From positions 1,632,001 to 1,696,000 of the forward strand of contig OY729427.2 in assembly GCA_963422375.2 (NCBI GenBank): 64,000 nt of DNA. The letters run 5' to 3'. The DNA comes from Bryobacterales bacterium (GTDB lineage Bacteria; Acidobacteriota; Terriglobia; Bryobacterales; UBA6623). This document shows, piece after piece, positions 46,131 to 64,000 of this stretch. Position 1 is the first letter of the stretch; every line of letters starts with the position of its first letter. The notes under the pieces were generated by a model, which was not told the origin of the DNA, did not search any database, and saw only the letters and a program-made list of their open reading frames with translations. The position numbers were made by a program, and so were the translations under genes.

Positions 46131-47381
46131 ATGGCCGATGTCGTAATGCCCCAGATGGGCGAGAGCATTGTCGAAGGGACTATCACCAAGTGGCTGAAGG
46201 GTCCGGGAGACAAGGTTGAGCGCGACGAGGCGCTCTTCGAGATCTCGACCGACAAGGTCGACTCGGAGGTCCCCGCGCCCGATTCCGGGGTACTCGAAGC
46301 GGTCTTCTTCCCCGAGGGCGAAACGGTCGAGATAAATACCGTGGTCGCCGTCATCGGGGACGGATCCAGGGTCGGAGAGCACAGCGCGCCGACCGCGGCG
46401 GCCGTGCCGGCGCCGCCCGTCACCGCTCCCCCCGCGTCGGCACCTGTGGCGGAACCGGCGGCTCCCCCCGCGCCTGCGCCCGAGCCGGGCAAGCGCATCC
46501 GCAGCTCGCCGCTGGTCCGTCGCATCACCAAGGAGAGGGGAATCGACCTTGCCCTTGTCGGCAAAGGCAGCGGGGCCGGGGGCAGGATCACCAAGAGCGA
46601 CATCCTCTCCCACATCGAGACGCAGGAGCGCGTCGCCGCCTCGGACCAGTCGGCCAGCGCCTTCCCGGCCGCGCCCGAGGCCCGATTCGGCGACTTCGAT
46701 GTCGAGCCGCTCAGCGCGATGCGCGTGAGCATCGCCGAGCACATGATCCGGACCATGCGGGTGGCCCCCCACGTCTCGACGGTGCATGCGGTGGATTGCA
46801 CGAAGATCGCCAGCCTGCGCAGAGCGGCGAAGGACCAGTTCTTGGAGCGCAACGGCACCAAGCTGACATTCATGCCATTCTTCCTGCAGGCCGTGGCGTC
46901 CGCTCTGAAGGCCTATCCCACGGTGAACGCCTCGCTTGACGGCAAGAACCTCGTCAGGCACAGGGAAATCAACGTGGGCGTCGCCGTGGCCTTGGACTGG
47001 GGCCTGATCGTGCCGGTGATCAGGAACGCCGACGAGAAGAGCCTGGTCGGTTTGCAGCGATCTGTCAACGACCTCGCGACGCGTGCGCGCGCGAAGGCGC
47101 TCAAGCGCGACGAGATCTCGCAGGGGACATTCTCGATATCGAACTACGGCAGCTACAACTCGCTGCTGGCAACGCCGGCCATCAACCAGCCGCAGGTGGC
47201 GATCCTCGGGATCGGCGCGGTCACCAAGGCGCCCGTCGTCATCAACGACGCGATCGCGATCCGTTCGATTTCATACCTGACGCTCAGCTTTGATCACCGC
47301 GTGATCGACGGGGCTGTCGCGGACTTGTTCCTCGAGCACATCAGAGAGATCGTGGAGAACTGGAACGCTCCCGTCCTGTAG
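46131..47381 (+). CDS. 2-oxoacid dehydrogenase E2 dihydrolipoamide acyltransferase (SucB/PdhC-like)
   Basis: Lipoyl STDKVDSE, E3-binding SSPLVRR..GRITKSD, catalytic SFDHRVIDG. Confidence 0.93.
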   Translation: MADVVMPQMGESIVEGTITKWLKGPGDKVERDEALFEISTDKVDSEVPAPDSGVLEAVFFPEGETVEINTVVAVIGDGSRVGEHSAPTAAAVPAPPVTAPPASAPVAEPAAPPAPAPEPGKRIRSSPLVRRITKERGIDLALVGKGSGAGGRITKSDILSHIETQERVAASDQSASAFPAAPEARFGDFDVEPLSAMRVSIAEHMIRTMRVAPHVSTVHAVDCTKIASLRRAAKDQFLERNGTKLTFMPFFLQAVASALKAYPTVNASLDGKNLVRHREINVGVAVALDWGLIVPVIRNADEKSLVGLQRSVNDLATRARAKALKRDEISQGTFSISNYGSYNSLLATPAINQPQVAILGIGAVTKAPVVINDAIAIRSISYLTLSFDHRVIDGAVADLFLEHIREIVENWNAPVL

Positions 47382-47685
47382 CGGGCCCGACACCTTCGAG
47401 CGGGCTCGGGGGAACCTCGGCGATGAGTGCGCGGGCGTGCCCAGCCGAGCCTGCTTCAAAGGGGTCGCGCTCGATCCCTTCAATAGCGGCAAGAGCGTGG
47501 CGCGACGCTGAGGGTCGCATCTCTCCCCGGACGTGCGGGAGTCAGGAACCGGAGCGAATTATCCCAGCAGGCCCGTCGTCGGTGGACCGAGCGCCGTCCT
47601 TCGACACGACACCGTGATCGGGGGCTGGACGGTCGTCGACCAAGAGTCGCGAGCGACACAGAACCGAGCTGTACGCAAATACCGT

Positions 47686-48599
47686 CCTGATTACCCACAA
47701 GACTCAGCCAAGGTTAGGAGGCGGAAAGGCATGGGCGGGGTGCGCACGGAGGCGTGGAGCAGGCGGGGGACCAGCGCCTCCAGGTCGTAGCGGCGGTTGA
47801 AGCGGTAGCAGAACGCGGCGAGGTACCGCGGCAGGTGCTTGCCGTCGAGCGCATGGCAGGTTCCCGCCAGGGACTGCTTGACGTTCGCCAGCATCGTTCT
47901 GACCCGGACGAAGCGGGAATCCCCGCAGCTCCGCTGCCCGCCTGCGGTGACGGTCGGCACGTGCTCGCAGCCGGCGCCGGCCACGCCCCGGAAGCAGGCC
48001 GGGCCGTCGGAATGCACCTCCGTGCCGGGCTGCAAGTGCCGCCCGGCCCATGCTGCCAGCGTCTTCTTGCGGAAGCCCGCCACGCTGCTCAGGCGCATCC
48101 TTGCCGGCTGGCCGTCGGCGCTGACCTGCACGGCGGCCACGAACGGCGTCTTGCCCGCCGCGCCGCGCCCGCGCTTGCCGCCGCTCCGCTCCCCGCCCCG
48201 GCAGGCGTCGTCCACTGGCACGATGCCGTGCAGCGGCACGCGCTCGTCGCGCTCCTTCAGCACTTGCAAAAGCTTGTGCTTCATCTTCCAAGCCGTGTTC
48301 CGGCTGACCCCCAGCTGCCGCGCCAGTTCCAGCGACGAAACGCCGTGCTGGCCCTGCGTCAGCAGGTGGAGCGCCAGCAACCGGACGGTCAGCGGCAGCT
48401 TGGTGGCGGCGAAGATCGTGCCGGCGACGAGGGAGGTCCGGCGGTGGCAGGCATGGCACTGCCGGAGCTTGCGGGAGCGGATGCGGCAGTGCCGTCGGGA
48501 GCCGCACTCCGGGCAGCGGAAGCCGTCCGGCCAGCGGGCGTTGCAGACGGCCTGCTCGCATGGCCCCTCGCTGCCGTAGCGCTGCCCGAGACATGGCAC
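47686..48599 (-). mobile_element. IS1595-family transposase, degenerate, left end apparently missing
   Basis: RWPDGFRCPECG zinc ribbon, GTIFAATKLPL, GKRGRGA, HSDG, YLAAFCYRFNRR; terminal CCTGATTACC at 47686. Confidence 0.85.
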
Positions 48600-49142
48600 T
48601 CTGCTAAACTATGCTACGATACAAGGTTTGGCATGGGCGCTGCCCGTTGCGACTGTTACTTCAAGCTGGAGCTCGGATCAAATTTGTCATGGGGAGACAG
48701 CGAGCTACGCGAGACGATTACAGGGAATATTTCGGTCTTCCCGCATCCGGTTCGCCACCGCTCGGGTTCTCGGCTTGGGCCCGACGGTCAGTCGCTCGGG
48801 TCGAGGCAGAGATCGGAGGAAGCTGCCTCTCGGATGCCCAGAGGGAATCACTGCTGGAGGGCCTCCATCGAAGCATGGCATTGCTAGGTGCGGACAGGCC
48901 GAGGGCCGGGCAGCAGCAGGGACGTGACGTCTGCGATGCGGCGGGGACGGTGGCGAGGCCAAATCGGGAGGGTGCGGTCTCGGTCGACCCGCTCGGGGCG
49001 CGGTGGGTGTTGGGTCACCAAGCCTTGGAAGTTCTCTTGGCGGGGCTCGTTCGTGTGCTGGCGGGGTCGTCGGAGCGGGTCGGAAACGAATCCGTCGCTA
49101 AGGCAGTCATGAATAAGGAGCAACCTGAGCAGCGCGTTTTAC

Positions 49143-49586
49143 GTGTTCCGGGCCGCGAAAGTCTGCCTATTGCGATCAAAATCGCCCTGTTTTGTGACGA
49201 TTGGGCTCAGCCCGGCGGACGGAGTGCGTGCGGCTGGGAACGTGGGAGCATACTCTGTCGCAAAGCTCGGGCTCCAGATGCTGACAAGGACGTTGGCGTC
49301 CGAGGTCGCCCCGATGGGGTTTCGGATCAACTGTGTCGCGCCCGGGCTGATCGACAACGGCCATCTCGAGGACGCGCAGATGCGGTGGATGTCGAAGAGA
49401 GTGCCGGCCGGGCGTCTCGGCCGCGTTGAGGAAGTTGCAGCATGCGTGAGCTTTCTGTTGCGCCCGGAATCGTCTTACGTTAATGGGGCGACGCTAGCGG
49501 TGAGCGGTGGTTGGGACTGGTTTGATCGCGACTCAAGTTACGATACGGCCGTGAAGGAAACCTTCGCTGAGGAGATCCGACGCTGA
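49143..49586 (+). pseudogene. SDR family oxidoreductase, C-terminal half only
   Basis: YSVAK catalytic motif, RINCVAPG, PAGRLG, YVNG; no TGxxxGIG found upstream. Confidence 0.75.
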
Positions 49587-50752
49587 TGCCTGCCGCTGCT
49601 CTCAGTCTCAGGGGATGTCGCTTGGACGAATATGTGCGCGAGCATTTTCGGAATTCGCTGCTCGATTTTGCAACCGGCTCGCCCATGGAGACCCCGCCTA
49701 GCCTCTTGAGAGTTGAGGCGGTGGGTGCGGTCTTGAAGGCTCTGCAAGAGCGAAGCGATTCTTCGGGCTTGCAGGCCTTACGCGACGCCGTGGAGTCGAA
49801 GCTAGTCGCTAGCGGCCTCAGCTCGAATGCAGAGTACGAGATCGCCATTACCAACGGGGCGACGGGGGGCCTGCAGGCAGCGCTCTTTGCTGCAGTCGGG
49901 CATGGTGACGAAGTGCTTGTGCCCGTGCCGGGCTATCCAGTCTTCGACGCTATCCGCTTGGCAGGTGCCACACCCGTTGCAGTCGCACTTGAAGCACCCA
50001 GTTGGACGCTGAGGCCCGAAGCCCTGCTTTCCGCGATTACGCCGAGAACGCGTGCAATATACATCAATCAACCGAGCAACCCGACCGGGCGCGTACTCAC
50101 GGCGTTTGAAGTCGCCCTAGTCAGGTCGGTCTGTCTGGAGCGGAAGCTGTACGTCATTGAGGATGCGACGTACGAAGAGATCTACTTTGCCAAGCAACCG
50201 GTGGCCTTGGGATCCGAAGATCGGATAAGCGAGCGAGTCATCCGAGTCGGAAGTTTCTCCAAGACATACAACGTCCCAGGCTGGAGATTGGGGTATGTGG
50301 TGGGTTTGGGGGACGTTGGCCGTCGCGTTAGGCGCGTCAGCGAGACTGTCACGGGAGGCATTTGCACGCCGTTGCAGGAGGCGATGGTCGCGGCTTCGTT
50401 CGCTACCTTGATTGACTTGGATGCGATGCGCACGCGATATAGGAAAGTGCGAGATTGCTTTGTTTCCGTGCTAAATCGGTTTGGATTCCAATTCGAAAGA
50501 CCGGACGGGGGCATCTACGTTTTCGCCAATTGCCCAGCCGGTCTGGGCCCGGAAGATTTGCTGCGCAAGGGCGTGGCCACGATGCCCGGTTGGTTGTTTT
50601 ACCCAGACGAGGGGCGGCATTCTTCGCGAACACGGTTCTGCTTCACTCGGCCGAGGGCGCGTCTCGGAGAGCTTCGTGCAGTGTTTTGCCGAAGCGTCGT
50701 CGCGGAGGTAGGGCCCGATACAACCTGCAGGGGGAGGGGGTCTGTCGCGTGA
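49586..50752 (+). CDS. PLP-dependent aminotransferase class I/II
   Basis: ITNGATGG, NQPSNPTG, EDATY, SFSKTYNVPGWRLGY; TGATG overlap with the SDR. Confidence 0.9.
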   Translation: MPAAALSLRGCRLDEYVREHFRNSLLDFATGSPMETPPSLLRVEAVGAVLKALQERSDSSGLQALRDAVESKLVASGLSSNAEYEIAITNGATGGLQAALFAAVGHGDEVLVPVPGYPVFDAIRLAGATPVAVALEAPSWTLRPEALLSAITPRTRAIYINQPSNPTGRVLTAFEVALVRSVCLERKLYVIEDATYEEIYFAKQPVALGSEDRISERVIRVGSFSKTYNVPGWRLGYVVGLGDVGRRVRRVSETVTGGICTPLQEAMVAASFATLIDLDAMRTRYRKVRDCFVSVLNRFGFQFERPDGGIYVFANCPAGLGPEDLLRKGVATMPGWLFYPDEGRHSSRTRFCFTRPRARLGELRAVFCRSVVAEVGPDTTCRGRGSVA

Positions 50753-51447
50753 GATTCGTTGTGCATAAGGGAATCCGAGATGCGTTCCCGGGGATGAAGC
50801 TTGCCGTTGGGTACGGTACGGGCTTGGATAACACGGGTCGTGGCCGTCGCATTCTCGAGGCACTGAGATCCGAAGAGGAGCGTCTCCGTGACCGCTGGGC
50901 ATATTCGAACGCGCAGTCACACCCCAGCATCGCTTGCTGGAGGACGGCGATGAAGCGGAACGGAGTGAAGGCTGCGATGTTCCCGAGTGCGATCGAGAGC
51001 TTGGTCAGGCAGGTGATCACCGGGCGTCACCTCGCGAACATCAACCCGTTGGTCAACCTTGGCAATCTCGTGGCGATCAGGCACCTGACCCCGGTCGGGC
51101 TCTTCTCGGCGAGTGTCGAGATACACCTGCGGCATACAAGAAGCGGCGAGCGCTTCACGGAAATCGGTCGGTCGGAGTCGGTGGGGCTCAACGAAGGGGA
51201 AATTTGCTACGCCACGCCGAGTGCGGTGATCACGCGACACTTCGTTTGGCGGCAGGGCGAAGAAGCCAAAGTAACGCCCGGTACACGGGATTTCTTCTTT
51301 GTTAGCGAGGTGCTTCCGGAGCTTGAACCGGTGACGGCGAGTAGGGTCCTAGACGACTTTGTACAAGATGTCGGTCGGTATTTCAACATTCGGATGAGGG
51401 CCGGGATGCTGACATCGCAGCCCAGTGAATGGAGCTTCGCGGGTTGA
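50749..51447 (+). CDS. Stand-alone B3/B4 domain protein (PheRS-beta editing-like)
   Basis: HPSIACWR, PSAIESL, INPLVNLGN, GEICY, WRQG...KVTPGT; GTGA overlap with the aminotransferase. Confidence 0.82.
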   Translation: MRFVVHKGIRDAFPGMKLAVGYGTGLDNTGRGRRILEALRSEEERLRDRWAYSNAQSHPSIACWRTAMKRNGVKAAMFPSAIESLVRQVITGRHLANINPLVNLGNLVAIRHLTPVGLFSASVEIHLRHTRSGERFTEIGRSESVGLNEGEICYATPSAVITRHFVWRQGEEAKVTPGTRDFFFVSEVLPELEPVTASRVLDDFVQDVGRYFNIRMRAGMLTSQPSEWSFAG

Positions 51448-51470
51448 GCATCTTGAAATCGCACGGAACG

Positions 51471-51989
51471 ATGCCTGTCGAATATCATGTTGCGCAGTTC
51501 AACATTGCGCGAATGAAACGACCACTTTCCGACCCGGCGATGGGCGGTTTCGTTGGTCATCTCAAGCCGATCAACGCGCTGGCGGACCGCAATCCCGAGC
51601 ACATTTGGAGGTTGCAGGACGAGGATGGCGATGCCACGGCGATTCGTGCGTATCCGGAGGACCCTTCCTTGCTTGTCACGCTTTCAGTATGGACGTCGAT
51701 CAACGCCCTTTTCGACTTCGCGTACTCGAGAGAACACGCAGCTGTGATGAGGGGTCGAGCACAGTGGTTCGAGGAAATTGACGAGCCCTACATCGTGCTC
51801 TGGTACGTCAGAAAAGGCACAGTCCCGTCTCTTGACGAGGCGAAGATGCGCCTCGCCTACCTGAGGGTGCATGGCTCAACTCCGCGAGCCTTCAACTTCA
51901 AGAATCGCTTTTTGCCTGAAGAGGCGGCGGAGTTGGAGGCGTTCCACGAGGGCCGGATAGTGGCGCGGCAGTCGACACACGCTAGCTAG
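51471..51989 (+). CDS. DUF3291 domain protein (dimeric alpha+beta barrel)
   Basis: HVAQFNIAR, INALAD, WRLQDEDGDAT, LSVW, WF..IVLWYV, HGSTPRAFNF. Alternative TTG start at 51444. Confidence 0.82.
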   Translation: MPVEYHVAQFNIARMKRPLSDPAMGGFVGHLKPINALADRNPEHIWRLQDEDGDATAIRAYPEDPSLLVTLSVWTSINALFDFAYSREHAAVMRGRAQWFEEIDEPYIVLWYVRKGTVPSLDEAKMRLAYLRVHGSTPRAFNFKNRFLPEEAAELEAFHEGRIVARQSTHAS

Positions 51990-52016
51990 GCAGCTGTAGG
52001 CTAGTCGGAGTGGACT

Positions 52017-53240
52017 ATGGCTAAGGTATTCATCGAGTTCAGTGCTGGTATTGGACCGCTTATTCGCTGTCTTCCGATCTCTCGAGAGTTGCGAAAGATG
52101 GGCCACGAAGTTCGATTTTTCGCAAGAGATCGCGCCGGTGACTATATGAAGCTTGAAGGGTTCGAGGCAATTGACCTTGATCCGGACAGCGTTGCACTCG
52201 AGAATAAGATCAACCCCAGTTGGGTTACAATTGATGAATTCTACGGAATGATGGGATTCGACGATCTGGCTTGGCTGAGTGATCGCCAAGATAAATGGCA
52301 AGCAGCGCTCTTGAGCTGGATGCCAGATCTAATTGTTGCGGATTTGGGTGCCCTCTCAATGATTGCTGCTCGCGTTTTGAAAATACCACTAGTTACGATC
52401 ACTCAGAGTTGCTATCACCCGCATCTGAAACTTGAAAGAATTCAATATTGGGCTCCTAGAGCGAGCCAGACTCCACGTTGTCTTGAGGTAGTGAACACGT
52501 ATTTCTCGAAATCAGGTGTCCCTGCAGTCCGCTGTTTTCAAGACCTGCACATCGGTACAGGAGCGACAGTGATTCCCGGATTTCCAGAATTCGACAAGCT
52601 TGTACCTAGCTGGGAGTCTCAGACTGTATACGCCGGACCGGTCTTGGCAAGTGATTTTGGCCATGGGAAGAGACGGCCTCTTCACGGAGGTGAGCCTATG
52701 CATGGGAAGCCACCTCGATTGTTTTGCTACACGGGCCGCCTCCGGGACTGGGCAGGAAATAGCGGTATGTTCCTATTCGATTCCGTTGTCTCTGCTCTCA
52801 AGGGGACTGAGTGTCAGGTGGTCTTTTCGACAGGAGGACTTGACAGTGATTTGCCACGGGTAGCGGGCACTGGTTTGGCAGAAGTGACAATTACGAACTG
52901 GATCCCGATGGACTTGGCGTATACACGCAGTGACTTGGTAATTCATCATGGCGGCCACGGCAGTTGCATGGGTCTGTTTTGGTACGGCGTACCGGGTCTT
53001 GTCTTACCCACTCACACAGAGCGCGAGTACAACGCTCGCATGGTCCAGCATCTTGGTTGTGGCAGATATATTTCTAGGGAAGATATATCAAGGAGCGCGA
53101 TCACCGAGACTCTCCACGCAATGCTGGAGGACCCTTCGTCTCGCACAAGGGTCCGAGCATACCGAGAAATGTTGCGCAAGAAGTATCCGAACCCTGGACA
53201 GATTGGTGCCGATGCAATTGCAAAGGTCATTCAAGCGTGA
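52017..53240 (+). CDS. GT-B glycosyltransferase (GT1/UDP-sugar small-molecule type)
   Basis: GHEVRF, PDLIVAD, WIPMD, IHHGGHGS, GVPGLVLP. Confidence 0.87.
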   Translation: MAKVFIEFSAGIGPLIRCLPISRELRKMGHEVRFFARDRAGDYMKLEGFEAIDLDPDSVALENKINPSWVTIDEFYGMMGFDDLAWLSDRQDKWQAALLSWMPDLIVADLGALSMIAARVLKIPLVTITQSCYHPHLKLERIQYWAPRASQTPRCLEVVNTYFSKSGVPAVRCFQDLHIGTGATVIPGFPEFDKLVPSWESQTVYAGPVLASDFGHGKRRPLHGGEPMHGKPPRLFCYTGRLRDWAGNSGMFLFDSVVSALKGTECQVVFSTGGLDSDLPRVAGTGLAEVTITNWIPMDLAYTRSDLVIHHGGHGSCMGLFWYGVPGLVLPTHTEREYNARMVQHLGCGRYISREDISRSAITETLHAMLEDPSSRTRVRAYREMLRKKYPNPGQIGADAIAKVIQA

Positions 53241-53416
53241 CCTGATTCCCTACTAGCATCGTCCGATCCGGGAGATTGGTTGGTTGCAAGCGGTCGGCAA
53301 GGACGCCCTCCATAGCGACTCTCAGACCCATAAGGGCCTAGGGCTCCAGCTGCATGCCCTGCGCTAGGGCCCGAAACGACGGGGCCGTAGCGGCGAGGGC
53401 AGGTGTAACGTTACGA

Positions 53417-54155
53417 CAGCGGTTCTAAATTCGGCCATCAAGGTGGTGAGTGAACGTTGTCTCGGAGGATGAGGTGAACAAGTTGACCGAGAGGTCGCGC
53501 TACTGAGTGCGCCCCGAGGGAGCGTCGGATGGCTGGCAGGGCTGTGTCGCGACCCCGCGACGGGACCGCCTAGTGAGGGGCCCGCGGCCGGACGCACTCC
53601 GGCGGTAGCTGGTTGCCGCGGGCTGCCTTGTACCCATGAGTCTTGGTTGAGGGCAGGTTTCGGTGCAAGTTTCTGGCTTGGTCCAGGCCGATCAGCCGCT
53701 CGTACGTCTGCGTGGCCGTAGCGAGTCGCGTGTAGCCCTCCCAGAGAACCTCGCGCCCGGGCGGGGGATCGTGCTTGCGGTTGAGATAGCCGCCGAGCAT
53801 CGCCGTGGTGAGCGCTGCGCGCCCTAGGTTGTCGGGTGCCGGCAGCTGGCGAGCCTTGGCGAAGTCGCCCGGCGCCCGCAGCTCGGCGTCGGAGAATTGA
53901 TCGCGTGGCGGCAGTTCGGGCGTGTCCCGGCCCGGCAGCGTCATCACGGTCAGGCGCCACGCGATCGCCGCCTTGATCGTGACCGCCCGCTCGATCCGCT
54001 CGCCGCGGCGATGGCCGAGGTGTTCCGCCCGGCAGCCGGACTTGAGCACCCGGTGCCAGTCCTCGATGCGCCAGCGCAGGCGATACCAGACGAGGATGCG
54101 CTCCGCGTCCGCGCGCGTCCGCACCGACAAGCTCGCCAGCAGGAACCATTCCAGC
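53417..54155 (-). mobile_element. IS4 (Tn5-group) transposase C-terminal fragment with the ~200-bp end module
   Basis: LEWFLL..YRLRWRIEDWHRVLKSGC..GGYLNRKHDPPPG; inverted near-duplicate of 58355-59049; begins CAGCGGTTCT. Confidence 0.85.
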
Positions 54156-54499
54156 CTTGGACCTTGACAGGCCGGAGAAGGCCGTGGTGGCCACAATCCA
54201 CCGTGCCCGGAAGGCCCTCGCTGACGGACCTAATGCCGGTCACTTGCGAGACGCCACGCTAGCGCAGCCCGCGGTCCGCCAACTGCCCGAAGCTGAATGC
54301 TTGCCACAGTAGTCAAGTTCAATCGTTGGGATGCGCAATATGGTATAGTACCTGAAGTGCCTTGGGAGCTGAGCCGCACTTGGCGAAGGTCGGCGCGTAG
54401 CGGGACGTTCCCGCTACGCATCTCGCGGTGGTCGCATTGGGGTCTGCTCGCTTGATCGCCTCCCTGCTATCTGGAGTGGTGACTTTGCAACGCCCGCTG

Positions 54500-54870
54500 G
54501 CTGGCTCGGAGGCGCAGCTGAAGAAGCAGCGCACTCGGGCGGAAGTGGCGGAGGGACCGTGCGCCTTCCTGCTGCCGTGCGTGGTAGAGCTTGAACGGTA
54601 GCTGTTCGGACGCAGGAGCGATGCGCGGCCAGCGAGGCCCGGCGAAAGCACTGCGGCAGGCGGAGCAGCAAGATCGGCATGTCGAATCCGGAACGCACGA
54701 GCAACTTCCGCTGGCCGCTGCAGATGTATGTGCGGCGCGTTGCGACGGACGTTCGCCACTGTCCACAGTTCGGAAGGCCTTGGACGCTTGGGAAGGCGAA
54801 GATACTCCCAGAAGGGCGGTGAGGATGCGGGTCAGGTACTCCGGAGGAAGTTCGGCGGCCTTGTGAAGCG
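54500..54870 (+). mobile_element. Possible IS66 transposase N-terminal remnant
   Basis: ELER*LFGRRSD and a CPQ-containing segment in broken frames; weak. Confidence 0.3.
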
Positions 54871-55201
54871 ACGGTCGGTTAGAATTACGCGCCACGCTGT
54901 CGAGACGGCCGGAAGCAATTCAGCTCGCTGTCGAGCCTCGCATCCGGCGGATGTAGGCTGTCGTCTTGCGACCGGGACATCGTTCGATGAGCGATATCCT
55001 AAGCGAGGCGACGGCGCGATTCCTTTAGCTGGCATCATCCTTTTTGTGCCCGTCCCTACTAGGATAAATGGAGGTAGCCTTATGTCCGCCCTCACTGAGA
55101 TTGGATATGCGCGAGAGTGTTGCACCGTAACTCAACCGTCGCTACCCTATCGAGGTTCGCGGATCTTATTGCGGCTATTAGTCTTCTCGTAGGTTGAATA
55201 A

Positions 55202-56068
55202 GTGGCACCAAACGAGCGCATCAACAGGGCCGCCGTCCAAGCACACCAGCCTGTCTTCATACTGGGAAGTCACAGATCTGGTACAACGCTTCTGAGATAT
55301 CTCCTTGATAGTCACGACAATATTGCATGCCCACCAGAGACTAAGTTCATTGCAGGACTACATGCGGCCATGTCCTATCCACAAGTACAGAGTGCATTGA
55401 ATGGCTTGGGTACTACAAGGCAGAGATTCTATCACCACCTGCGAGTCTTGATTACAGCAATTCTTACTGATTACACAATAAGCAAAAATAAGAAGCGATG
55501 GATTGATAAGACACCAAATTATTTCCGCTATATCGAATTTATAGATGAACTATTTTCTGCCCAAGCTCTGTATATCATTATAGCCCGTCATCCGTTTGAT
55601 ACAGCTGAATCTCTACGTCAATTCTCCCGACGTCTGCTTGTATCGGATTCACCCGATCCTGAGTTAATCCGTGCCGCCAAGCGATTCGGTACTGGACGCT
55701 ATGGATGGTTGAAACATTGGGCGGATGTTTATGACCGGCTACTTGCGTTTTCGGCAGGTTGCGAAGACCGTTGTATTGTGATCAAGTATGAGGACCTCGT
55801 CAACGATGCTTCGCCAACATTGGCCCGTGTGCTAGAGTTCATAGGCGAATCGCCTTGCGATGACCTGATTGAGCGTGCATTTTCGTTGCCTCACGATGGA
55901 GGATACGGAAGATATCAAGATCCGACTATCCTTACTAAGACACGAATTGAGAAGGGAAGTGTCGGTAAGTGGAGGGCATGGCCCTCATCCGAGTGCAGAG
56001 TTTTATGGCCGATTGTCGCATCATTGGCAGACAGTCTCGGCTATTCTTCCCCTGAGCTGGGTGGTTAG
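55202..56068 (+). CDS. PAPS-dependent sulfotransferase (Sulfotransfer_3/TPST-like)
   Basis: FILGSHRSGTTLLRYLLDSH (5'-PSB), CPPET, DKTPNY, RHPFD..S, YEDLV, GKWR; AT-rich. Confidence 0.9.
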   Translation: MAPNERINRAAVQAHQPVFILGSHRSGTTLLRYLLDSHDNIACPPETKFIAGLHAAMSYPQVQSALNGLGTTRQRFYHHLRVLITAILTDYTISKNKKRWIDKTPNYFRYIEFIDELFSAQALYIIIARHPFDTAESLRQFSRRLLVSDSPDPELIRAAKRFGTGRYGWLKHWADVYDRLLAFSAGCEDRCIVIKYEDLVNDASPTLARVLEFIGESPCDDLIERAFSLPHDGGYGRYQDPTILTKTRIEKGSVGKWRAWPSSECRVLWPIVASLADSLGYSSPELGG

Positions 56069-56114
56069 AGCACCTTGCATTCACAATCATTTTCAACTTG
56101 GAGGGATACCGGCA

Positions 56115-56807
56115 ATGATTGTGCATGATCTTAGTTGCGTCTTTGTACACGTTCCAAAGACTGCCGGTCAAAGCATTGAGCAAGTATTTCTTGATCTGGC
56201 CGGTCTGACGTGGTCAACACGGGCACCCCTCCTATTGAGATATAACGAGTTCCCCCAGTTGGGACCCCAGTCACTTGCACATCTCACAGCCGAGGAATAT
56301 ATTATATATAAATATCTTTCTCGCGCTCAATTCAAGAGCTATCTTAAGTTCGGATTTGTTCGCAATCCTTGGGATAGAGCAGTTTCGGAATATTACTACC
56401 GGAAGTTCGACATGAAGTTTGACTTTCGTCAGTTTCTGTTAGATTACATTCCTGCGATGGATTTGAGCAATCTGTATCTTGACTCACACCGACACATCAT
56501 TCCTCAGGCTAGGTTTCTATATGATGACAATGGTGTAAAGCTAGTGGACTATATTGGCAGATTTGAATTCCTTGACCGTGATTTCGCGAGAGTCTGTGAC
56601 TTAGTTAAGATCGAACGAAAGACATTGCCACACCGCAATCGGTCAGCTCCAGTTAGACCATCGTCATCTAATTCGATTCATACGGATTCTCTCCACTCCT
56701 GTCTATCTCGTGTGGAGTTTTATCGATCACACTATGACAAGGAATGTCGACAATTTATTAGAGATTTCTACGAAGACGATATCACGCTGTTTGGATATCG
56801 TTTCTAG
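56115..56807 (+). CDS. Sulfotransferase family 2 protein
   Basis: FVHVPKTAGQSI, FVRNPWDRAVSEY, PQ, IGRFE, D..LFGY; GGAGG upstream; AT-rich. Confidence 0.88.
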   Translation: MIVHDLSCVFVHVPKTAGQSIEQVFLDLAGLTWSTRAPLLLRYNEFPQLGPQSLAHLTAEEYIIYKYLSRAQFKSYLKFGFVRNPWDRAVSEYYYRKFDMKFDFRQFLLDYIPAMDLSNLYLDSHRHIIPQARFLYDDNGVKLVDYIGRFEFLDRDFARVCDLVKIERKTLPHRNRSAPVRPSSSNSIHTDSLHSCLSRVEFYRSHYDKECRQFIRDFYEDDITLFGYRF

Positions 56808-57052
56808 TTGGCGACTCGTTCTACTGGAAAGCGCTACGGGATGGATCGGCCTCACCCCTCATAGCCGCGGACGGACGCAGTAGCGGTCCCGCTGCGAGGT
56901 GATGTGCGAACAAGGGCTCTGCCGCAGGGGCCGGAGCAACTCCTGTACAAGTTAACGCGGACACCCGGACGGCGGGAGACGCTCGGCCGACATGGCAGAA
57001 CCTGCCTCCGAGCAGCCCTGCCCGATCTAGGAAGGACACAGGGAACACACCC

Positions 57053-57210
57053 ATGGCATCGAAGAACAGGCCCGCCTCCAAGCAGCAGGGCAAGGAGGCG
57101 GCCGTGATCGGCATCGACATCGGTGATTACAGCGTCCACAGGGTCGGCGTGGACCGGCACCGCGAGCCGCTGGTCAGGGGGAAGCTCGGACACGGGGTGC
57201 GATTGATCCT
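57053..57210 (+). mobile_element. IS110-family recombinase N-terminal remnant
   Basis: VIGIDIGDYSVHRVGVDR resembles the first DEDD motif; truncated. Confidence 0.55.
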
Positions 57211-57252
57211 CCAAAGTACGTCAAGCCCTGCGTCAGCCGGACAAGACCGACC

Positions 57253-59049
57253 CAGCGGTTCTAGATTTGGCCATCAAGGTCGTGGGTGAACGTTGTTTCG
57301 GAGGATGAGGTGAACAAGTTGACCGAGAGGTCGCGCTACTGAGGCCGCCCCGAGGGAGCGTCGGATGGCTGGCAGGCCTGTGTCGCGACCCCGCGACGGG
57401 ACCGCTTGGTGCCGGGCCCGCGGCCGGACGCACTCCGGCGGTAGCCGGCTGCCGGCAGCGCTACGGCTACGAGCCCCTGCTCGTGGAGACCTTCGTCGAC
57501 CGCCGGCGCCATGCCGGCACCAGCTTCAAGGCCGCCAACTGGATCCATGTCGGCCGCACCGCCGGCCGCGGGCGCTGCGCCCCGACCGGCACCACCGTGC
57601 CCGTCAAGGCCGTCTTCCTGTATCCCCTGCGGCACGACTGGCGCCGCCAGCTGGGCGTGCCCGCGCCCCCGCCCGTGCCGGACCTCGCCGCCGGGCCGGA
57701 CCGCGATAGCTGGGCCCGGCGCGACAGCTGGGCCCGGCGCGAATTCGGCGGGGCTCCGCTGGGAGATGTACGCTGGAGCCGCCGCCCGGTGCAATGCGCG
57801 GCCGCCATGGCCGCCGCGCCGCGGGCCTCGTTCGTCTCCGCAGCCCAGTCCAACGGCGCCCTGATGAAAGCCTGCTGCCGCATGATCGACCAGCCGGCCG
57901 AGGCCGCCATCACGCCCGCCAGCATCCTCGCCCCCTGCCGGGCGTGCCGCTGATCCAGTTCGAGGCCCCGGACGGCCGGGCCGACAAGCACAAGCCGGCC
58001 GAGCTGCGCAAGACGCAGCGCTGGGTGCGCGGGCTGCAGGACACGCCGAGCTGGCCGGGCAGCTGCGGGGGACCCGGCCGGTCGCGGTCATGGACCGCGA
58101 CCGGCCGGGTTCGAGCCGTGCGCCGAGCGCCGGCGGCTGGACGGGATCGACCTGCTGGTGCGGGCCAGGCACAACCGCAGTCCCGGCAAGGCCCGGCCGA
58201 AGCTCTTGGACTGCCTGCGCGCGGCCGAGGTGGCGCTGCGCTGGCAGACGGTCCCGCTGCCGGCGCCGGCCAAGGGACCCGAGCGCGGGAGCGAGCCGAT
58301 TCGCCTGAGCACGGTGCACGTGCGGGAGGACGCGGCCCCGGACGGCGCCGTGCCGCTGGAATGGTTCCTGCTGGCGAGCTTGCCGGTGCGGACGCGCGCG
58401 GACGCGGAGCGCATCCTCGTCTGGTATCGCCTGCGCTGGCGCATCGAGGACTGGCACCGGGTGCTCAAGTCCGGCTGCCGGGCGGAACGCCCCGGCCATC
58501 GCCGCGGCGAGCGGATCGAGCGGGCGGTCACGATCAAGGCGGTGATCGCGTGGCGCCTGACCGTGATGACGCTGCCGGGCCGGGACACGCCCGAACTGCC
58601 GCCGCGCGATCTGTTCTCCGATGCCGAGCTGCGGGCGCCGGCGACTTCGCCAAGGCTCGCCCGCTGCCGGCACCCGACAACCTAGGGCGCGCGGTGCTCA
58701 CCACGGCGATGCTCGGCGGCTGTCTCAACCGCAAGCACGATCCCCCGCCCGGGCACGAGGTTCTCTGGGAGGGCTACACGCGACTCGCTACGGCCATGCA
58801 GACGTACGAGCGGCTGATCGGCCTGGACCAAGCCAGAAACTTGCACCGAAACCTGCCCTCAACCAAGACTCATGGGTAAAAGGCAGCCCGCGGCAGCCGG
58901 CTACCGCCGGAGTGCGATCGGCCGCGGAGTCGGCACTAAGCGGACCCGCTCTGGGGGACGCGCTAGCTCGACCTCTCGGTCAAGTGGTTCATCTCATCCT
59001 CCCAACCAGCGTTCACGCACCACCTCAATGGCCAAAGTTGGCATCGCTG
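57253..59049 (+). mobile_element. Deleted DUF4338-IS4 transposase bracketed by two inverted copies of the ~200-bp end module
   Basis: CAGCGGTTCT at 57253; YGYEPLLVETFVD..GTSFKAANW; Tn5-type C-terminus; ends GCATCGCTG at 59049; several frameshifts. Confidence 0.8.
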
Positions 59050-59062
59050 CCCACCGGAACAA

Positions 59063-59300
59063 CCGTAGCGGCCATTAGGCACAAGGAGCTGCGGAAGGTG
59101 GAGCGTTGCTTCCGCGAGTCGCAGTTGCTGCTGGGGACACGCCCGGTCAATTACTGCACGGACAAAGCCGCCCGGGGCACGTGAGTGCATGCGAATACGC
59201 AGGAGGTGCTTCGGAATCCATGCTGCGTGCGTATTGGATGTCTTTGCCCCAAGACGGAGTGATCAAGGCGGAGATCCTGCAGAAAGTCACCGTTGATCTA
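59063..59300 (+). mobile_element. IS1634-family transposase remnant
   Basis: HKELRKVERCFRESQLLLGTRPVNYCTD..RGHV resembles the IS1634 VExxFR..RP...IRGHV region. Confidence 0.55.
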
Positions 59301-60866
59301 CTAGCCCGGCCGAGTTCCTCGCGTCCTGTCATAAGCTGCAAATGCAAGAACCAGCGGGATGGCAAGAAGAAATAGGATCGAATACTGACGGAACATCCGC
59401 GTAAGAGCCAAGGATTGAGCCTGTACTTGCAACAAGTTGAGAAGCCTCTCGTATCGACTCAACCACTGAGTTTGATTTGGGTCTCGAAGAAAAGGGTAGA
59501 AAACTATAGCGGGTCGATTATGGCTGCTAATCTGGTCTCCTAGATCGCTGATGATGCGTCGGACCGAACGATACAGGAGAGAAATCGATATAGCAATGCC
59601 CGAGCCACCTCCAAGATTTCTAATCAATGTAAAGATGCTCGTTGCATCCTGCAATCGCGATTTTGGCACTGAACGCATGGAATATGTCGTAAGTGGAACC
59701 CACAGAAGCGAAAATGCGAAGCCCTGTAGCAATTGCGGCCACAAGAAGTCTTGGGGACCGGCGTCGAGCGAAAGATTCGATAAGCTAAAGAGCGTCCACG
59801 CCCCCAGTGCCATCCCTGTACATATGAGCGTCCTCGGACCGACTGGCCCAAGAATCCGCGCGACGACAAACAATCCACAGAGAGTACCTAGGCCTCGAGG
59901 AGCGAGCGCCATCCCAGCCTGCAACGGAGGATACTCGAGCACAACTTGCATCCAAAATGGAAGCAAGAGTAAGCTCCCATAGAATACCGAACTTAGGACA
60001 ATCATCAATAGACAGCCAAGCGCGAAAGACTGACTTCTCAATACACGAAGATCAACCACGCTAGACGGGGTCTGCCATTCATGTAGGACAAACAATAGAA
60101 ACACTGTACCACTAACCAAGAACAATCGAATTATGTATAAGGAATCAAACCAATTCTCATGATGGCCAAGAGTAAGAGCCAATTCCAGTGGGGCCACCCA
60201 CGCAACAAGTAGGACAAATCCAATCCAATCCAACTGATTATCCTGCGACTGGCGAATCTGAACATCTGACGCGACTAGAGAATTTAATATGAGGGACAGA
60301 ATGCCTAATGGAAAATTGATAAAAAAGATCCATCTCCAGCTATAGTTCTGAAGGATCCAGCCTCCAACGACTGGTCCCAACAATGGTGACATGACGACCC
60401 CAATACCTATGAAGGCCATAGATTTACCGCGAAGATCGATCGGGTACTCTTCGAGTAGCATCGCTTGCGACAGGGGCTGAAGTGGACCGTTTGAAAGGCC
60501 CTGAACGATCCGGAAAATCACTAGACTTAGAAGCGTCGGAGAAAAACCGCACAAGACGGACGATGCCGTGAATGATATGATGGATACTTGTAGGACTATT
60601 CGTCGTCCATAGAGCCGTGCAAGCCACGCAGTAGCCGGAACCGTAATCGCACTTGCAACTAGATATGCTGTCACAACGCCCGTGGACTCTTCAGAAGTAG
60701 ATGATAATGCACCAGCGATATAGGGAAGAGCGATGTTTACGACAGTAGCATCCAATGCGCCCATAAAAATCGTAACGGTAGCCGTAATTGCAAGAATCCA
60801 GAAACTTACCCAGCGCTTCACAGGGCCAGCTATACTCCACATGACTTGGGGTAGGGAATACGACAT
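59301..60866 (-). CDS. DHA2 (EmrB/QacA) MFS efflux permease
   Basis: LDATVVNIALP, YGRR, FRIVQG, GPVVGG..WRWIFFINFPLG, RNLGG; AT-rich. Confidence 0.93.
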   Translation of the reverse strand: MSYSLPQVMWSIAGPVKRWVSFWILAITATVTIFMGALDATVVNIALPYIAGALSSTSEESTGVVTAYLVASAITVPATAWLARLYGRRIVLQVSIISFTASSVLCGFSPTLLSLVIFRIVQGLSNGPLQPLSQAMLLEEYPIDLRGKSMAFIGIGVVMSPLLGPVVGGWILQNYSWRWIFFINFPLGILSLILNSLVASDVQIRQSQDNQLDWIGFVLLVAWVAPLELALTLGHHENWFDSLYIIRLFLVSGTVFLLFVLHEWQTPSSVVDLRVLRSQSFALGCLLMIVLSSVFYGSLLLLPFWMQVVLEYPPLQAGMALAPRGLGTLCGLFVVARILGPVGPRTLICTGMALGAWTLFSLSNLSLDAGPQDFLWPQLLQGFAFSLLWVPLTTYSMRSVPKSRLQDATSIFTLIRNLGGGSGIAISISLLYRSVRRIISDLGDQISSHNRPAIVFYPFLRDPNQTQWLSRYERLLNLLQVQAQSLALTRMFRQYSILFLLAIPLVLAFAAYDRTRGTRPG

Positions 60867-62168
60867 CTAGTCTAACCTCACCTGCGCCGTCACCGACATA
60901 CCGGGGCGCAATATATTGACCGAGTTTCGAGTAGTTTCCACCTTAATTCTAACTGGAATTCTCTGTACGACCTTGACAAAGTTTCCGCTTGCATTCTCGG
61001 GAGGAAGCAGACTAAACTTCGCTCCAGTTGCCGGAGAAATGCTCTCGATCCAGCCAGAGATATCGAGTTCTTCGTAAGCATCGACCTTGACAATAACTGA
61101 TTGGCCTTGCCGCATTCCAGCTATTTGAGTTTCCTTAAAGTTCGCGGTAATCCAAATGTCGTCCAAAGAAACGACTGTGAGCAGTGGTTGGCCCGCTACA
61201 ACAACCTCTCCCTGTTCAACGCTTAGGTGAGTTACGATCCCGGGAACCGGCGACCTTAGCTTCGTACGAGTCAAATTGAATTGTGCTTGGGCCAATTCCG
61301 CTCTTGCAAGCCCCTGCAGTGCCTGCGCGGCTGATAACTCTGATTCACTTAGGTTAAGCTGGTCGGAGACCGTTTCAGCTCGGATTAGTTGAGCACGTGC
61401 TTCGGCAAGAGCAGCTTCAAGGGTTTCCAATTCACTGTTACGTGCTTCGAGACGAACACTTCGGGCCTCCATAGATGCACGTGCGGCCGCCATTCTCTTC
61501 CTTGCGATTTGCTCCAACTCCGTGGCCTCTTGCAGTTGTTGGCGTGATAGAAGACCATTCTGAAATAACCGCCTAGCGGTATTCAGACTTCGAGTAGAAC
61601 CCTCCACAACGACTTGAGCTTCCGCAAGAGTTGCCTTGGACTCTTCGAGCTCTGCAGAGGATTGAAGATGGGAAAGCCGAGCTGTCTCAAGACTATGGAG
61701 GACTCGCTGTACTCTAGATTGCGCCTCCTTGAGAATGGAAGAGGCTCTGATCGATACAAGAGCGATCTCATGCTTAGCTCTCAGGACATTCGATTCGCTT
61801 TCTTGTACCCTTGCATTTGCTTCATCAATGGCCATCCTAAAGGGGATGTCATCGATCTTGAGCAATAAGTCACCAGAGCTAACACGTTGGTTCTCGTTTA
61901 CATGTACCGAGTACACGGTTCCTCTGACTGATGCGCTTATTGCATGAATGCGACCATCAACTTGCGCATTGTCTGTGGATTCAATTGAAGGCCCCAATAC
62001 AATCCATCCAAACGTGGCACAAGCCGCGGCCGACACCACGACAATTAGTCGATTCCGCGTGACCGGACTCACCGTGTGACCTCGGGGTGTCTTGGATCGG
62101 ACCTTGCGGCCATGGCTAGTAATGCTCGCAACGGAGAAGCATATCCTCTCCAGACTTTGATCGGCCAA
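60867..62168 (-). CDS. HlyD/EmrA-family membrane fusion protein (start may lie near 62072)
   Basis: TDNAQV, WITANFKETQ, SPATGAKFSLLPPENASGNFVKVVQRIPVRI, LRPGMSV; stop abuts the MFS ATG. Confidence 0.93.
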   Translation of the reverse strand: MADQSLERICFSVASITSHGRKVRSKTPRGHTVSPVTRNRLIVVVSAAACATFGWIVLGPSIESTDNAQVDGRIHAISASVRGTVYSVHVNENQRVSSGDLLLKIDDIPFRMAIDEANARVQESESNVLRAKHEIALVSIRASSILKEAQSRVQRVLHSLETARLSHLQSSAELEESKATLAEAQVVVEGSTRSLNTARRLFQNGLLSRQQLQEATELEQIARKRMAAARASMEARSVRLEARNSELETLEAALAEARAQLIRAETVSDQLNLSESELSAAQALQGLARAELAQAQFNLTRTKLRSPVPGIVTHLSVEQGEVVVAGQPLLTVVSLDDIWITANFKETQIAGMRQGQSVIVKVDAYEELDISGWIESISPATGAKFSLLPPENASGNFVKVVQRIPVRIKVETTRNSVNILRPGMSVTAQVRLD

Positions 62169-62579
62169 TAGGGTCTGGGCGGAGGTCGTAGGAATACCGT
62201 CATTCGCCGCGAGCGGTCCTGCCCACGTAGCAGGTCATCTGTTGAGGCGAAGCCGCGCGAGAGCAAGTGGGGCGAGCACATGGAATGAGTGACCTATACG
62301 CTTGTGAGATCCGCGCCTCTGCAGCCGCGGGCCCCAGCCGATCTTCAACGACCTCGACTTAGGCGAGGATAGCACACTGTGAAGATACACCTTCCAGGTG
62401 GGTCTGGGGGCAATCAGCGTGGCACTGGGGCGACTGCTTAGGTGCCTCTACGAGTGACTGCGGTTATTGCGGTCGGGCAAGCTGCGTGGCGGAGACCACA
62501 GACTGTGTGCAATCGAGCCCAGCTGGAAGAATCAGTTCTTGCGCTAGGTGCCGGATGGGCGCGCGGCGAGCCCAACGGC

Positions 62580-63000
62580 CACATCCCGCCATCCGCACCT
62601 TGCACGATATGCTCATCGACATCGTCATCAAAGAAGTCGAGCGGCTCGCGAGCGCCCGGATGGCGGGCAACGTTCCGGTCGGTACCGTTGATCGCGACGA
62701 CCACGGCGACGAGTTGCGGGACCAGCCACCCTGGCAGCACCTTACCGCATTCGCCATCGATATCAGGGTGGTGGTCGGCCACCTCGGCGTCAGCGGCTGG
62801 AAGTACGCGGCCGAAGGGGCGCCCTGCGAGCGCAGCTCGACTCGCTAGCACGGCCCCGGGCGCTGCGTTCTGGCCGACGCGCTGCACGCGCAGCGGCAGG
62901 CCGCGGTGAAGAGCGACGTTCTTGGGATCGACTATTCCCTGCAGATCGAGGGCAATCAGCCGACGCTGCGCAGCAACGTGCAGTCAGTGGGAGCGTAGCG
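62580..63000 (+). mobile_element. ISAs1-family transposase remnant
   Basis: VLADALHAQR and DYSLQIEGNQPTL match ISAs1 DAxHxQ and KGNQ motifs; internal stop. Confidence 0.55.
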
Positions 63001-63226
63001 GGACGGATCCGCGGAGCGACGCCTGCCGCCTAGATCCACGGCTGATTCATAGAGTCTTTTCTCCGAAAGCGATAGGCCTTGGAGACACAGCCCCACGGTT
63101 CCGCCCCGGTGAGACGTTTCTACGGCCGGGTGGTTGGATTGACGTCAGGGACCGGCGCGGGGCGCCGTTCGCGCGGGCTTCCCCTTCGCTCGCGCTGAGC
63201 GACCGGGCACCCGGGTTGGCCCCGTC

Positions 63227-64000
63227 CTAGGAGAGTGCCGGCCGCTCAGCCGCTCCGGACCCCGGCTCCAGGGCCGGAGCGGACTCGGCCGGCCGCCACT
63301 TCTCGCGCCCGACCTGCTGTCGCAGCAGCTCCGCCTGCACGCGCCGCGCCACCTCCGGCAGCAGCTCCGCCTTGCGCACCATCCGCAGCCGACGGGACAG
63401 GCTCTTGCGCGCCGTCAGCGCTTCCGGGTCGACGACCGGATCGCGGTAGGGCACGCCGTCGCGCCGTATCGCGAACGCGATGCTCAGGATCTTGTGCCCC
63501 GGCGTCACCACCGCGCGCCCCGTGCCCTGCCGCGCGGCCAGGGCGCGCTTGCGCGGGCCGAACTGCGTGTCCTTGGTGCGCGTCGCCGCGTGGGCGACCT
63601 CGCACGGGATGCGCCGCATGTACGCGTTGCCCTTGCGCCTGCGGCCCCCGCGGCTCTTGCCGGCCGACTCGCGGTTGCCCGGGCACATGCCCGCCCAGCT
63701 CGCCAGGCGCCGAGCCGAACCGGCTCATGTCCGCCCCGATCTCCGCCAGCAGCGCCGTGGCCGCCACCGCCCCGATGCCCGGGTGCGTCTGCAGCAGCGT
63801 CCAAAGCACCTCGCAGTCGCGTCGCACCGTCTCGAGAATGCGCGCTTCCAGCGTCCTGACGGCCTCCTCGGCGGCGTCCGGCAGGCTTGGCAGGAGCGCC
63901 AGCGTCTCGCGCGAGACGTGCTCCAAGCCGCCGTGCAGCGCCTCCGGCAGCTCCGGGATCTTCTGCCGGGCTTTGCCCTTGACGCCCGCCTCCAGCAGGC
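63227..64000 (-). mobile_element. IS110-family recombinase, frameshifted, runs off the window
   Basis: LQTHPGIG..LLAEIGADMSRFGSA, then shifted LASWAGMCPGNRESAGK..GN. Confidence 0.88.

Follow-up and report, generated by a model that had tools for sequence, protein, structure and literature searches.

A composite genomic island in a Bryobacterales bacterium that may carry a decayed aromatic-hydroxylation cassette with a CtdA-like tRNA editor

We analyzed 64,000 nucleotides of a Bryobacterales bacterium (assembly GCA_963422375.2, contig OY729427.2, positions 1,632,001 to 1,696,000; hereafter the window), in which a foreign island of ~19.1 kb, from ~47382 to 66539 in window numbering, separates sucB from ackA. 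In the same-genus genomes fetched, the ackA match lay ~30-130 nt after the sucB match in 10/10. An earlier reading of the DNA, referred to here as the original prediction, had placed a candidate cluster for tailoring an amino acid analogue, with a tRNA-editing B3/4 protein for self-resistance and with export, at 49143..62168. A cluster is present there, but the actual island is larger and runs past the window end. The open reading frame (ORF) list and Pfam agreed on all nine genes at the positions claimed, and we add to them the probable remnant of a hydroxylase gene (48689-49112) that was absent from that gene list. The island is a composite of two compositional layers and not one pathway. 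The insertion and the genes of its first layer are as follows.

47382..64000 (continuing beyond the window end to ~66539), no strand: insertion; sucB ends at 47381 and ackA begins at ~66540
48689..49112, + strand: probable remnant (5′ part) of a gene for an aromatic hydroxylase of the heme-dependent TyrH/SfmD-like type, with RWVLGHQ at 49001-49021; moderate evidence
49113..49586, + strand: 3′ half of a short-chain dehydrogenase/reductase (SDR), a pseudogene; Pfam adh_short_C2 positions 126-235/236
49586..50752, + strand: intact class I pyridoxal phosphate (PLP) aminotransferase, aromatic/kynurenine/glutamine-transaminase-like; Pfam Aminotran_1_2
50749..51447, + strand: stand-alone B3/4 protein, putative aminoacyl-tRNA deacylase; Pfam B3_4
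51471..51989, + strand: DUF3291 protein, ABM-like dimeric alpha/beta barrel; Pfam DUF3291

The tight coupling described earlier was borne out, with a TGATG overlap between the SDR and the aminotransferase, a GTGA overlap between the aminotransferase and B3/4, a gap of 23 nt from B3/4 to DUF3291 (ATG at 51471) and one of 27 nt from DUF3291 to a GT1-type glycosyltransferase gene. The GT1 gene opens the second layer, which also holds two sulfotransferase genes (ST1 and ST2) and an EmrAB pair. The SDR fragment, aminotransferase, B3/4 and DUF3291 genes have 58-61% GC and a GC content at third codon positions (GC3) of 0.68, while GT1, ST1/ST2 and EmrAB have 43-51% GC and GC3 values of 0.47, 0.42 and 0.46, respectively, against a host reference of 0.89 taken from two host genes. 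The statement that all of these genes are AT-richer than the host therefore holds for the low GC, and the 21/60 G+C count at 55441-55500 was reproduced, but it hides the two layers. Composition shifts from DUF3291 to GT1 (Fisher p 3e-12), inside the apparent operon and not at the insertion sequences (ISs), and the GT1, sulfotransferase and EmrAB compositions are mutually indistinguishable (p 0.09-0.58). A comparison of composition had been proposed as a way to refute the cluster; when run per gene, it set apart the GT1, sulfotransferase and EmrAB part only, and this second layer is probably of separate origin from the first-layer cassette.

Two scans with a profile of the aminotransferase yielded 160 loci, and the order aminotransferase, B3/4, DUF3291 recurs in two distinct and unrelated ones, L001 and L136, with an SDR in one of them. 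In L001, the aminotransferase (51% identical to that of the window), B3/4 (62%) and DUF3291 (66%) are followed by a PhhA-like pterin-dependent hydroxylase (NF008877, 292.8 bits, above the cut-off of 247) and a Rid-family ORF. L136 (on the same contig as L031 and identical with it) reads TyrH-like ORF, short ORF, a fusion of ABM domain and SDR, aminotransferase, B3/4, DUF3291 and a broken PLP decarboxylase, and its identities to the window are 34% for the aminotransferase, 40% for B3/4 and 55% for DUF3291. The L136 TyrH-like ORF matches PDB 7kqr (E 4.5e-6), is labeled L-tyrosine 3-hydroxylase by Atlas (0.92) and scores 49.5 bits with a hidden Markov model (HMM) of 16 TyrH sequences; its ABM domain is 47% identical to the ABM of a TyrH-like/ABM/PLP-decarboxylase operon on plasmid pFiD188. 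The hydroxylases beside the cassette thus belong to two unrelated families, PhhA-like in L001 and heme-dependent TyrH-like in L136. By an indirect match, 6/10 clusters of close aminotransferases share their largest-contig size with a B3/4 relative, one of them being the L001 pair. Co-localization of aminotransferase, B3/4 and DUF3291, on which the original prediction had staked itself, was therefore found in two loci with DNA and, by this indirect match, in 6/10 aminotransferase clusters. As in clusters marked by a tRNA deacylase, the putative deacylase lies beside amino-acid-modifying enzymes across genomes (two loci, with a third locus, L002, as an exception), and the neighboring genes agree with the earlier suggestion of a non-proteinogenic amino acid as the theme. 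At cassette level, the lead depends on these two loci, the copy in the window being decayed.

The window aminotransferase belongs to a narrow clade, with ten relatives at 50-54% identity and the next at 38%, and the PLP residues K226, D193 and N165 are invariant. In PDB, an aromatic aminotransferase matches it best, though only narrowly. The close clade was found in 0/36 same-family genomes (profile, 1e-80); the same profile gave two matches in the same order, with B3/4 and DUF3291 absent from the fetched flanks, and 2/401 in the phylum of genome G498, without the cassette. Two other aminotransferase neighborhoods were seen in these scans. The aminotransferase of L002 (12-13372), a close relative, is followed by EamA and amino-oxidase-like genes; a PvcA-like isonitrile synthase and an ORF resembling class II aminoacyl-tRNA synthetases lie nearby, and L002 is a candidate for a different amino acid cluster. 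In L008, L096 and L137, a SIS/PGI-like gene and an SDR recur upstream of a distant aminotransferase (~31-33%) and form a trio with it, which in L096 is near an ORF resembling a nonribosomal peptide synthetase and in L137 precedes a MetRS-like ORF.

The B3/4 protein consists of a single domain of 232 aa. Its model has a mean pLDDT of 92.5, and its top Foldseek matches are the two structures of CtdA (PDB 9f7e and 9mkl), at TM scores of 0.81-0.83; against the beta subunit of phenylalanyl-tRNA synthetase (PheRS), the TM score is about 0.5 (E 5e-8). Residues N106, G117 and Q169 correspond to CtdA N105, G116 and Q173, a mapping that was read off the alignment and for which the numbering of the chain and that of the paper were inferred to differ by two residues. 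In CtdA, N105, G116 and Q173 (or E) are needed, as the mutants are inactive (PMC12449066). The fold, the length of ~230 aa and these three residues are common to both proteins, at 17-22% identity, and on this basis of model and alignment the window protein is quite probably a CtdA-like aminoacyl-tRNA deacylase, in keeping with the CtdA-like role first assigned to it. Membership of CtdA-1 agrees in fold and in N105/G116/Q173, and not in C166 and E118. The pocket departs from that of CtdA at E118 (F119 here), C166 (T162), I189 (V) and the RRW motif (RHF). C166 is described as strictly conserved and as a pocket residue, and as missing or replaced in the CtdA-2 clade (PMC12449066). At the E118 position, the window protein and its eight closest relatives have F, four others have W and two have I or Y. 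RHF occurs in 15/15 of the window protein and its relatives and in 0/18 B3/4 proteins from the host's phylum, a set from which 5/23 loci were dropped as the ORF picker missed them and in which one row (L185) is misaligned. With these replacements, we read the protein as a CtdA-like editor whose specificity may have changed.

In the host-phylum set, 8/18 proteins look canonical, with an acidic residue and C at the two places, and nine (L166-L168, L176-L180 and L183) have H at E118 together with T at C166, another non-canonical pocket type. The scan of 400 host-phylum genomes with the B3/4 profile that supplied this set gave 23 matches, none with DUF3291 within 1.5 kb and one near a distant (26%) aminotransferase. 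A single-protein B3/4 search of genome contigs gave no match, and a plasmid search gave 149 records, with identities of 24-31% among the 25 matches listed. The last gene of the cassette, DUF3291, has a low-confidence model (pLDDT 65.5) that resembles ABM-type barrels. DUF3291 is named among predicted heme-binding families (bioRxiv 10.64898/2025.12.11.692455), and a role as heme oxygenase or cyclase is possible for the modeled protein.

The 5′ end of the cassette is broken. As predicted, the SDR is truncated, with only profile positions 126-235 of 236 left; YSVAK is retained, and the Rossmann motif and NAD(P)-binding half are missing. Aligned through an in-frame TGA at 49110-49112, the fragment is 52% identical over 159 aa to the SDR of L136, with the homology beginning near 49113, past this stop. 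The intact relative in L136 is a fusion of an ABM domain with a TmpR/dihydropteridine-reductase-like SDR, for which TmpR is the best NCBIfam model (257.6 bits; next 204; cut-off 325). The TyrH-like gene upstream in L136 prompted a search of the 527 nt between the IS1595 element and the SDR, which turned up the frame listed above as a remnant. The family motif, built from the residues of 18 family members, has a single occurrence among 10.94 million six-frame genome residues, at the remnant; the chance expectation is 0.11 genome-wide and 5e-6 in the 527-nt gap, for a motif picked after the match had been seen. With an 18-sequence TyrH HMM, the remnant frame tops 1072 window segments (E 0.01), and it matches the TyrH-like protein of locus L205 by BLASTP (E 0.003, 22% identity over 131 aa; 3/3000 shuffles). 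Its GC3 is that of the first layer; the pairwise comparison with the TyrH-like protein of locus L225 was not significant. The sequence comparisons make it likely that 48689-49112 is what is left of a TyrH-like gene.

A deletion of ~1.7 kb, its size judged from the spacing in L136, would explain why the hydroxylase gene keeps only its 5′ part and runs straight into the remaining 3′ half of the SDR; the pathway is thereby crippled in the window, and its product is probably not made here. No PF00351 hydroxylase was found in the 96%-complete genome, and no significant TyrH-profile match was found elsewhere in it; production has therefore probably been lost, and an intact enzyme that makes the amino acid was not found in this genome, the weak TyrH-like remnant being the only trace. 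We judge it very probable that the product is no longer made in this genome. The earlier remark that no scaffold enzyme is visible can now be refined, since the missing enzyme appears to be an aromatic amino acid hydroxylase, probably broken here.

These findings point to a rare mobile cassette of the form [hydroxylase]-[ABM+SDR]-aminotransferase-B3/4-DUF3291. When intact, it would convert tyrosine to L-3,4-dihydroxyphenylalanine (L-DOPA) through a heme-dependent TyrH-like enzyme, or phenylalanine to tyrosine or m-tyrosine through a pterin-dependent one, with the TmpR-like SDR possibly recycling the pterin cofactor. The product might then be decarboxylated, transaminated and oxidized, with ABM/DUF3291 chemistry, while the stand-alone B3/4 protein would deacylate tRNA-Tyr or tRNA-Phe mischarged with the hydroxylated amino acid. 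In the window, the aminotransferase, B3/4 and DUF3291 genes persist as intact frames, which may reflect residual protection or decay. TyrH-type enzymes hydroxylate tyrosine (PMC8179489), and L-DOPA can be misincorporated in place of tyrosine in proteins (PMC12262335). From the two loci, the cassette substrate may well be an aromatic amino acid that carries an added hydroxyl group, such as L-DOPA or m-tyrosine, and we hold this with even confidence. We put the overall reading, a composite island with a decayed aromatic-hydroxylation cassette and a CtdA-like editor, midway between doubtful and probable. More tentatively, and with some doubt, a CtdA-fold B3/4 clade may have switched to L-DOPA- or m-tyrosyl-tRNA as self-protection in an undescribed bacterial pathway to catecholamine-like compounds with a heme or pterin hydroxylase, maybe extended in this lineage with glycosylation, sulfation and export before decay. 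Tied as it is to aromatic hydroxylases, this B3/4 clade offers a direct candidate for trans-editing of L-DOPA or m-tyrosine, and the cassette would give a handle on the uncharacterized chemistry of DUF3291 and could flag a new small-molecule pathway. An editor of this kind would also help where misincorporation of L-DOPA is troublesome. Since its first two genes are broken, the window copy is less valuable than the intact relatives.

Several known systems resemble parts of the cassette. CtdA itself lies beside canavanine catabolism, whereas the cassette lies beside aromatic hydroxylases, and the characterized members of the stand-alone B3/4 family are all canavanine-editing (PMC12449066). The B3/B4 editing domain of PheRS beta is of the same fold family as the window protein, and the substrate class of PheRS fits our proposal, but PheRS beta has H265/G318 where the window protein has a CtdA-type G116/Q173 pocket (PMC12449066). 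That deacylases mark clusters for host-made non-canonical amino acids is a published principle (PMC13149037), and the clusters with FthB, BesG, AlfB and FuzB likewise combine a free-standing editor, a hydroxylase and tailoring enzymes, with presumed self-protection (PMC13149037). That survey mined the AlaX family, whereas the editor here is of the B3/4 type and the hydroxylase aromatic; in its main text, DOPA, PheRS, CtdA and heme are unmentioned. A literature search, in which subscription journals were poorly covered, found nothing linking stand-alone B3/4 proteins to aromatic hydroxylases or DUF3291. The RWxxGH helix motif of TyrH/LmbB2/Orf13/SfmD (PDB 7kqr; PMC8179489) is present in the L136 ORF and weakly in the window remnant, and the saframycin pathway member of the TyrH type is known (PMC8179489), while the window gene is a fragment.

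TyrH-type hydroxylases also feed lincosamide and pyrrolobenzodiazepine pathways. No B3/4 match was found in ~3.5-8 kb around 21 TyrH-like loci (the L203-L208 and L210-L225 set of the L199-L225 scan). Two of these loci have genes worth recording. On plasmid NZ_CP015236.1, L205 (2716-8039, + strand) encodes a DMT transporter, an unannotated TyrH-like protein, ABM, a PLP decarboxylase, a cupin and a protein with a glutamine amidotransferase domain, and a DOPA/dopamine-type pathway is possible for this operon. In L225 (653-2244), from a Streptomyces-genus genome, a TyrH-like ORF is divergent from a frameshifted PLP decarboxylase.

The second layer comprises the following genes.

52017..53240, + strand: GT1-type glycosyltransferase; Pfam EryCIII-like_C, with NCBIfam MGT below cut-off
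55202..56068, + strand: sulfotransferase 1 (Sulfotransfer_3), both 3′-phosphoadenosine-5′-phosphosulfate (PAPS)-binding motifs; best relative 52% identical
56115..56807, + strand: sulfotransferase 2 (Sulfotransfer_2), both PAPS-binding motifs, the first having Q instead of the usual T/S
59301..60866, − strand: EmrB-like DHA2 permease of the major facilitator superfamily (MFS); TIGR00711 358 bits, cut-off 230
60867..62168, − strand: EmrA-like periplasmic adaptor; TIGR00998 216 bits, below its cut-off of 391, and TIGR01730 above cut-off

The best relatives of GT1, taken from 8000 scored candidates, are 49% identical to it. The sulfotransferases could be active on something, as their PAPS-binding motifs are kept and the host genome encodes an adenosine-5′-phosphosulfate (APS) kinase. 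The permease above its model cut-off and the adaptor adjoining it with zero gap make up an EmrAB pair, in which the start of EmrA is uncertain (TTG at 62168 or GTG at 62072). The GT1 clade was found in 0/76 family genomes, and G498 gave only a weak GT1-profile match (2e-8). Upstream of ST1, in frame with it and ending 10 nt before it, there is a 36-codon ORF (55082-55192, + strand) with an upstream GGAGG, two Tyr, one CC pair and no Pfam match, which may encode a small peptide substrate or be what remains of an N-terminal extension. The idea of an RRE-fused sulfotransferase was rejected, as no such domain was found in the 12 ST1 relatives scanned. In genome G027, of the same genus, the low-GC island of locus L229 (8491-16936, − strand) holds two tandem sulfotransferases, a glycosyltransferase-like ORF without a Pfam match, ABC and HlyD genes and a weak M50-peptidase-like ORF, and by eye it resembles a peptide-modifying cluster.

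A number of results weigh against a decayed hydroxylation cassette with a re-specified editor. Only two distinct full loci were found among the 160; the L001 contig covers only the aminotransferase and what follows it; the L136 aminotransferase, at its low identity, falls outside the close clade; the largest-contig-size match is indirect; and B3/4 and DUF3291 are both absent within 10 kb in L002, whose aminotransferase is 51% identical. The TmpR model (NF012208) failed for both SDRs, with 77 bits for the window fragment and a score below the cut-off for that of L136. For the remnant, the E value rises to 0.2 with the 16-sequence TyrH HMM, phmmer against PDB gave no match, the hhalign probability was 10-13%, the comparison with the L136 protein was not significant (101/300 shuffles), and other genome segments reach higher bits by chance. 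As to the pocket, T at C166 alone is not diagnostic because 9/18 unrelated host-phylum B3/4 proteins have it, and bacterial PheRS itself edits Tyr and m-Tyr. Salmonella CtdA and its pocket mutants gave no protection against m-Tyr (PMC12449066).

The main rival is a detoxification cassette for an external aromatic analogue, such as plant L-DOPA or m-tyrosine, in which B3/4 would edit the tRNA while the aminotransferase and the SDR turn the analogue into the keto and hydroxy acid, biosynthesis not being the purpose. It has this rank because CtdA precedes canavanine degradation operons (PMC10018355), and the persistence of aminotransferase, B3/4 and DUF3291 in the window although the hydroxylase is lost, as well as the Rid-family ORF in L001, would suit it. 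Yet both full loci encode an enzyme that would make the hydroxylated amino acid, one of them with a decarboxylase too, and the SDR is broken in the window, so we regard detoxification as unlikely. We find it improbable that the analogue edited by B3/4 is non-aromatic, for instance of the arginine type as for CtdA, with the aminotransferase as a GntC-like PLP enzyme acting on hydroxy-arginine. The closest solved structures are indeed those of CtdA and the best NCBIfam match of the aminotransferase is guanitoxin GntC (NF041364), but its 194.6 bits compare with a cut-off of 415 and with 172-179 for ordinary aminotransferases, and we rejected the GntC identity; moreover, CtdA E118 and C166 have become F and T, and no arginine-oxidizing genes were seen in L001 or L136.

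The two remaining rivals concern the island as a whole. All 13 kb may be, or may have been, one pathway, whose hydroxylated aromatic product was glycosylated, sulfated and exported by EmrAB. GT1 follows DUF3291 closely and has its own ribosome-binding-site-like GGAG, all parts lie in one insertion that is absent at that site in 10/10 congeners, and the composition is uniform across GT1, the sulfotransferases and EmrAB, in a host that has an APS kinase; GT1 enzymes and sulfotransferases typically act on phenols and catechols. Against this stand the break between DUF3291 and GT1 and the other genes that follow DUF3291 in both full loci. In the aminotransferase loci examined, GT1, ST1, ST2 and EmrA had no match except the window's own, apart from one 26% MFS match in L085. 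The largest-contig sizes of 88 GT1 relatives and 13 ST1 relatives (10 ST1 relatives being looked up) gave 0 matches to aminotransferase or B3/4 sizes, and the one ST1 relative found in 76 family genomes lies within another island of low GC, beside a second sulfotransferase, an unrelated glycosyltransferase-like ORF and ABC/HlyD genes, and cassette genes are absent there. The original claim that these genes belong to the same conserved pathway was thus not supported, and we consider a single pathway over the 13 kb quite unlikely; a glycosylation, sulfation and export pathway in this lineage is possible, with no comparative support. At the other extreme, the island could have come together by chance, as a mosaic of unrelated remains that ISs have shuffled and that share no function. 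About 7 of the 19 kb is IS DNA (repeats present elsewhere in the genome make up 6966 of the 19400 bp examined), two genes are broken, and 0/49 intergenic frames exceed a Pfam cut-off, but the aminotransferase-B3/4-DUF3291 order is kept in two unrelated loci, with an SDR ahead in one. For the first layer, a chance mosaic is already largely refuted, and as an account of the island we find it highly improbable.

The separation of the island into three blocks by ISs, part of the original prediction, agrees with Pfam and the repeat map.

47669..48586, − strand: IS1595-family element; Pfam DDE_Tnp_IS1595, with many ~95% copies in the genome
53411..54164, − strand: IS4-like transposase remnant; Pfam DDE_Tnp_1 and repeat map
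57244..59183, + strand: IS4-like remnant with flanking repeats; Pfam and repeat map

Assembly error as a source of this arrangement was ruled out. Two stretches, 48577-53491 and 54097-57200, are covered with 0 differences by contigs of run X2, which is possibly related to the source sample. Short identical pieces occur in runs from three further studies, and one of these pieces, 266 nt from run X6, crosses the SDR break, also with 0 differences. A DNA search of 60 family genomes, with four candidates scored in each, returned only host genes and ISs among the matches listed. No tRNA genes were found in the window, and promoter and terminator scans stayed close to chance (9 versus 5.5 and 11 versus 14.2). 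The IS load is very high genome-wide: IS1595 is present in dozens of copies at ~95% identity, and IS4-like ends are numerous.

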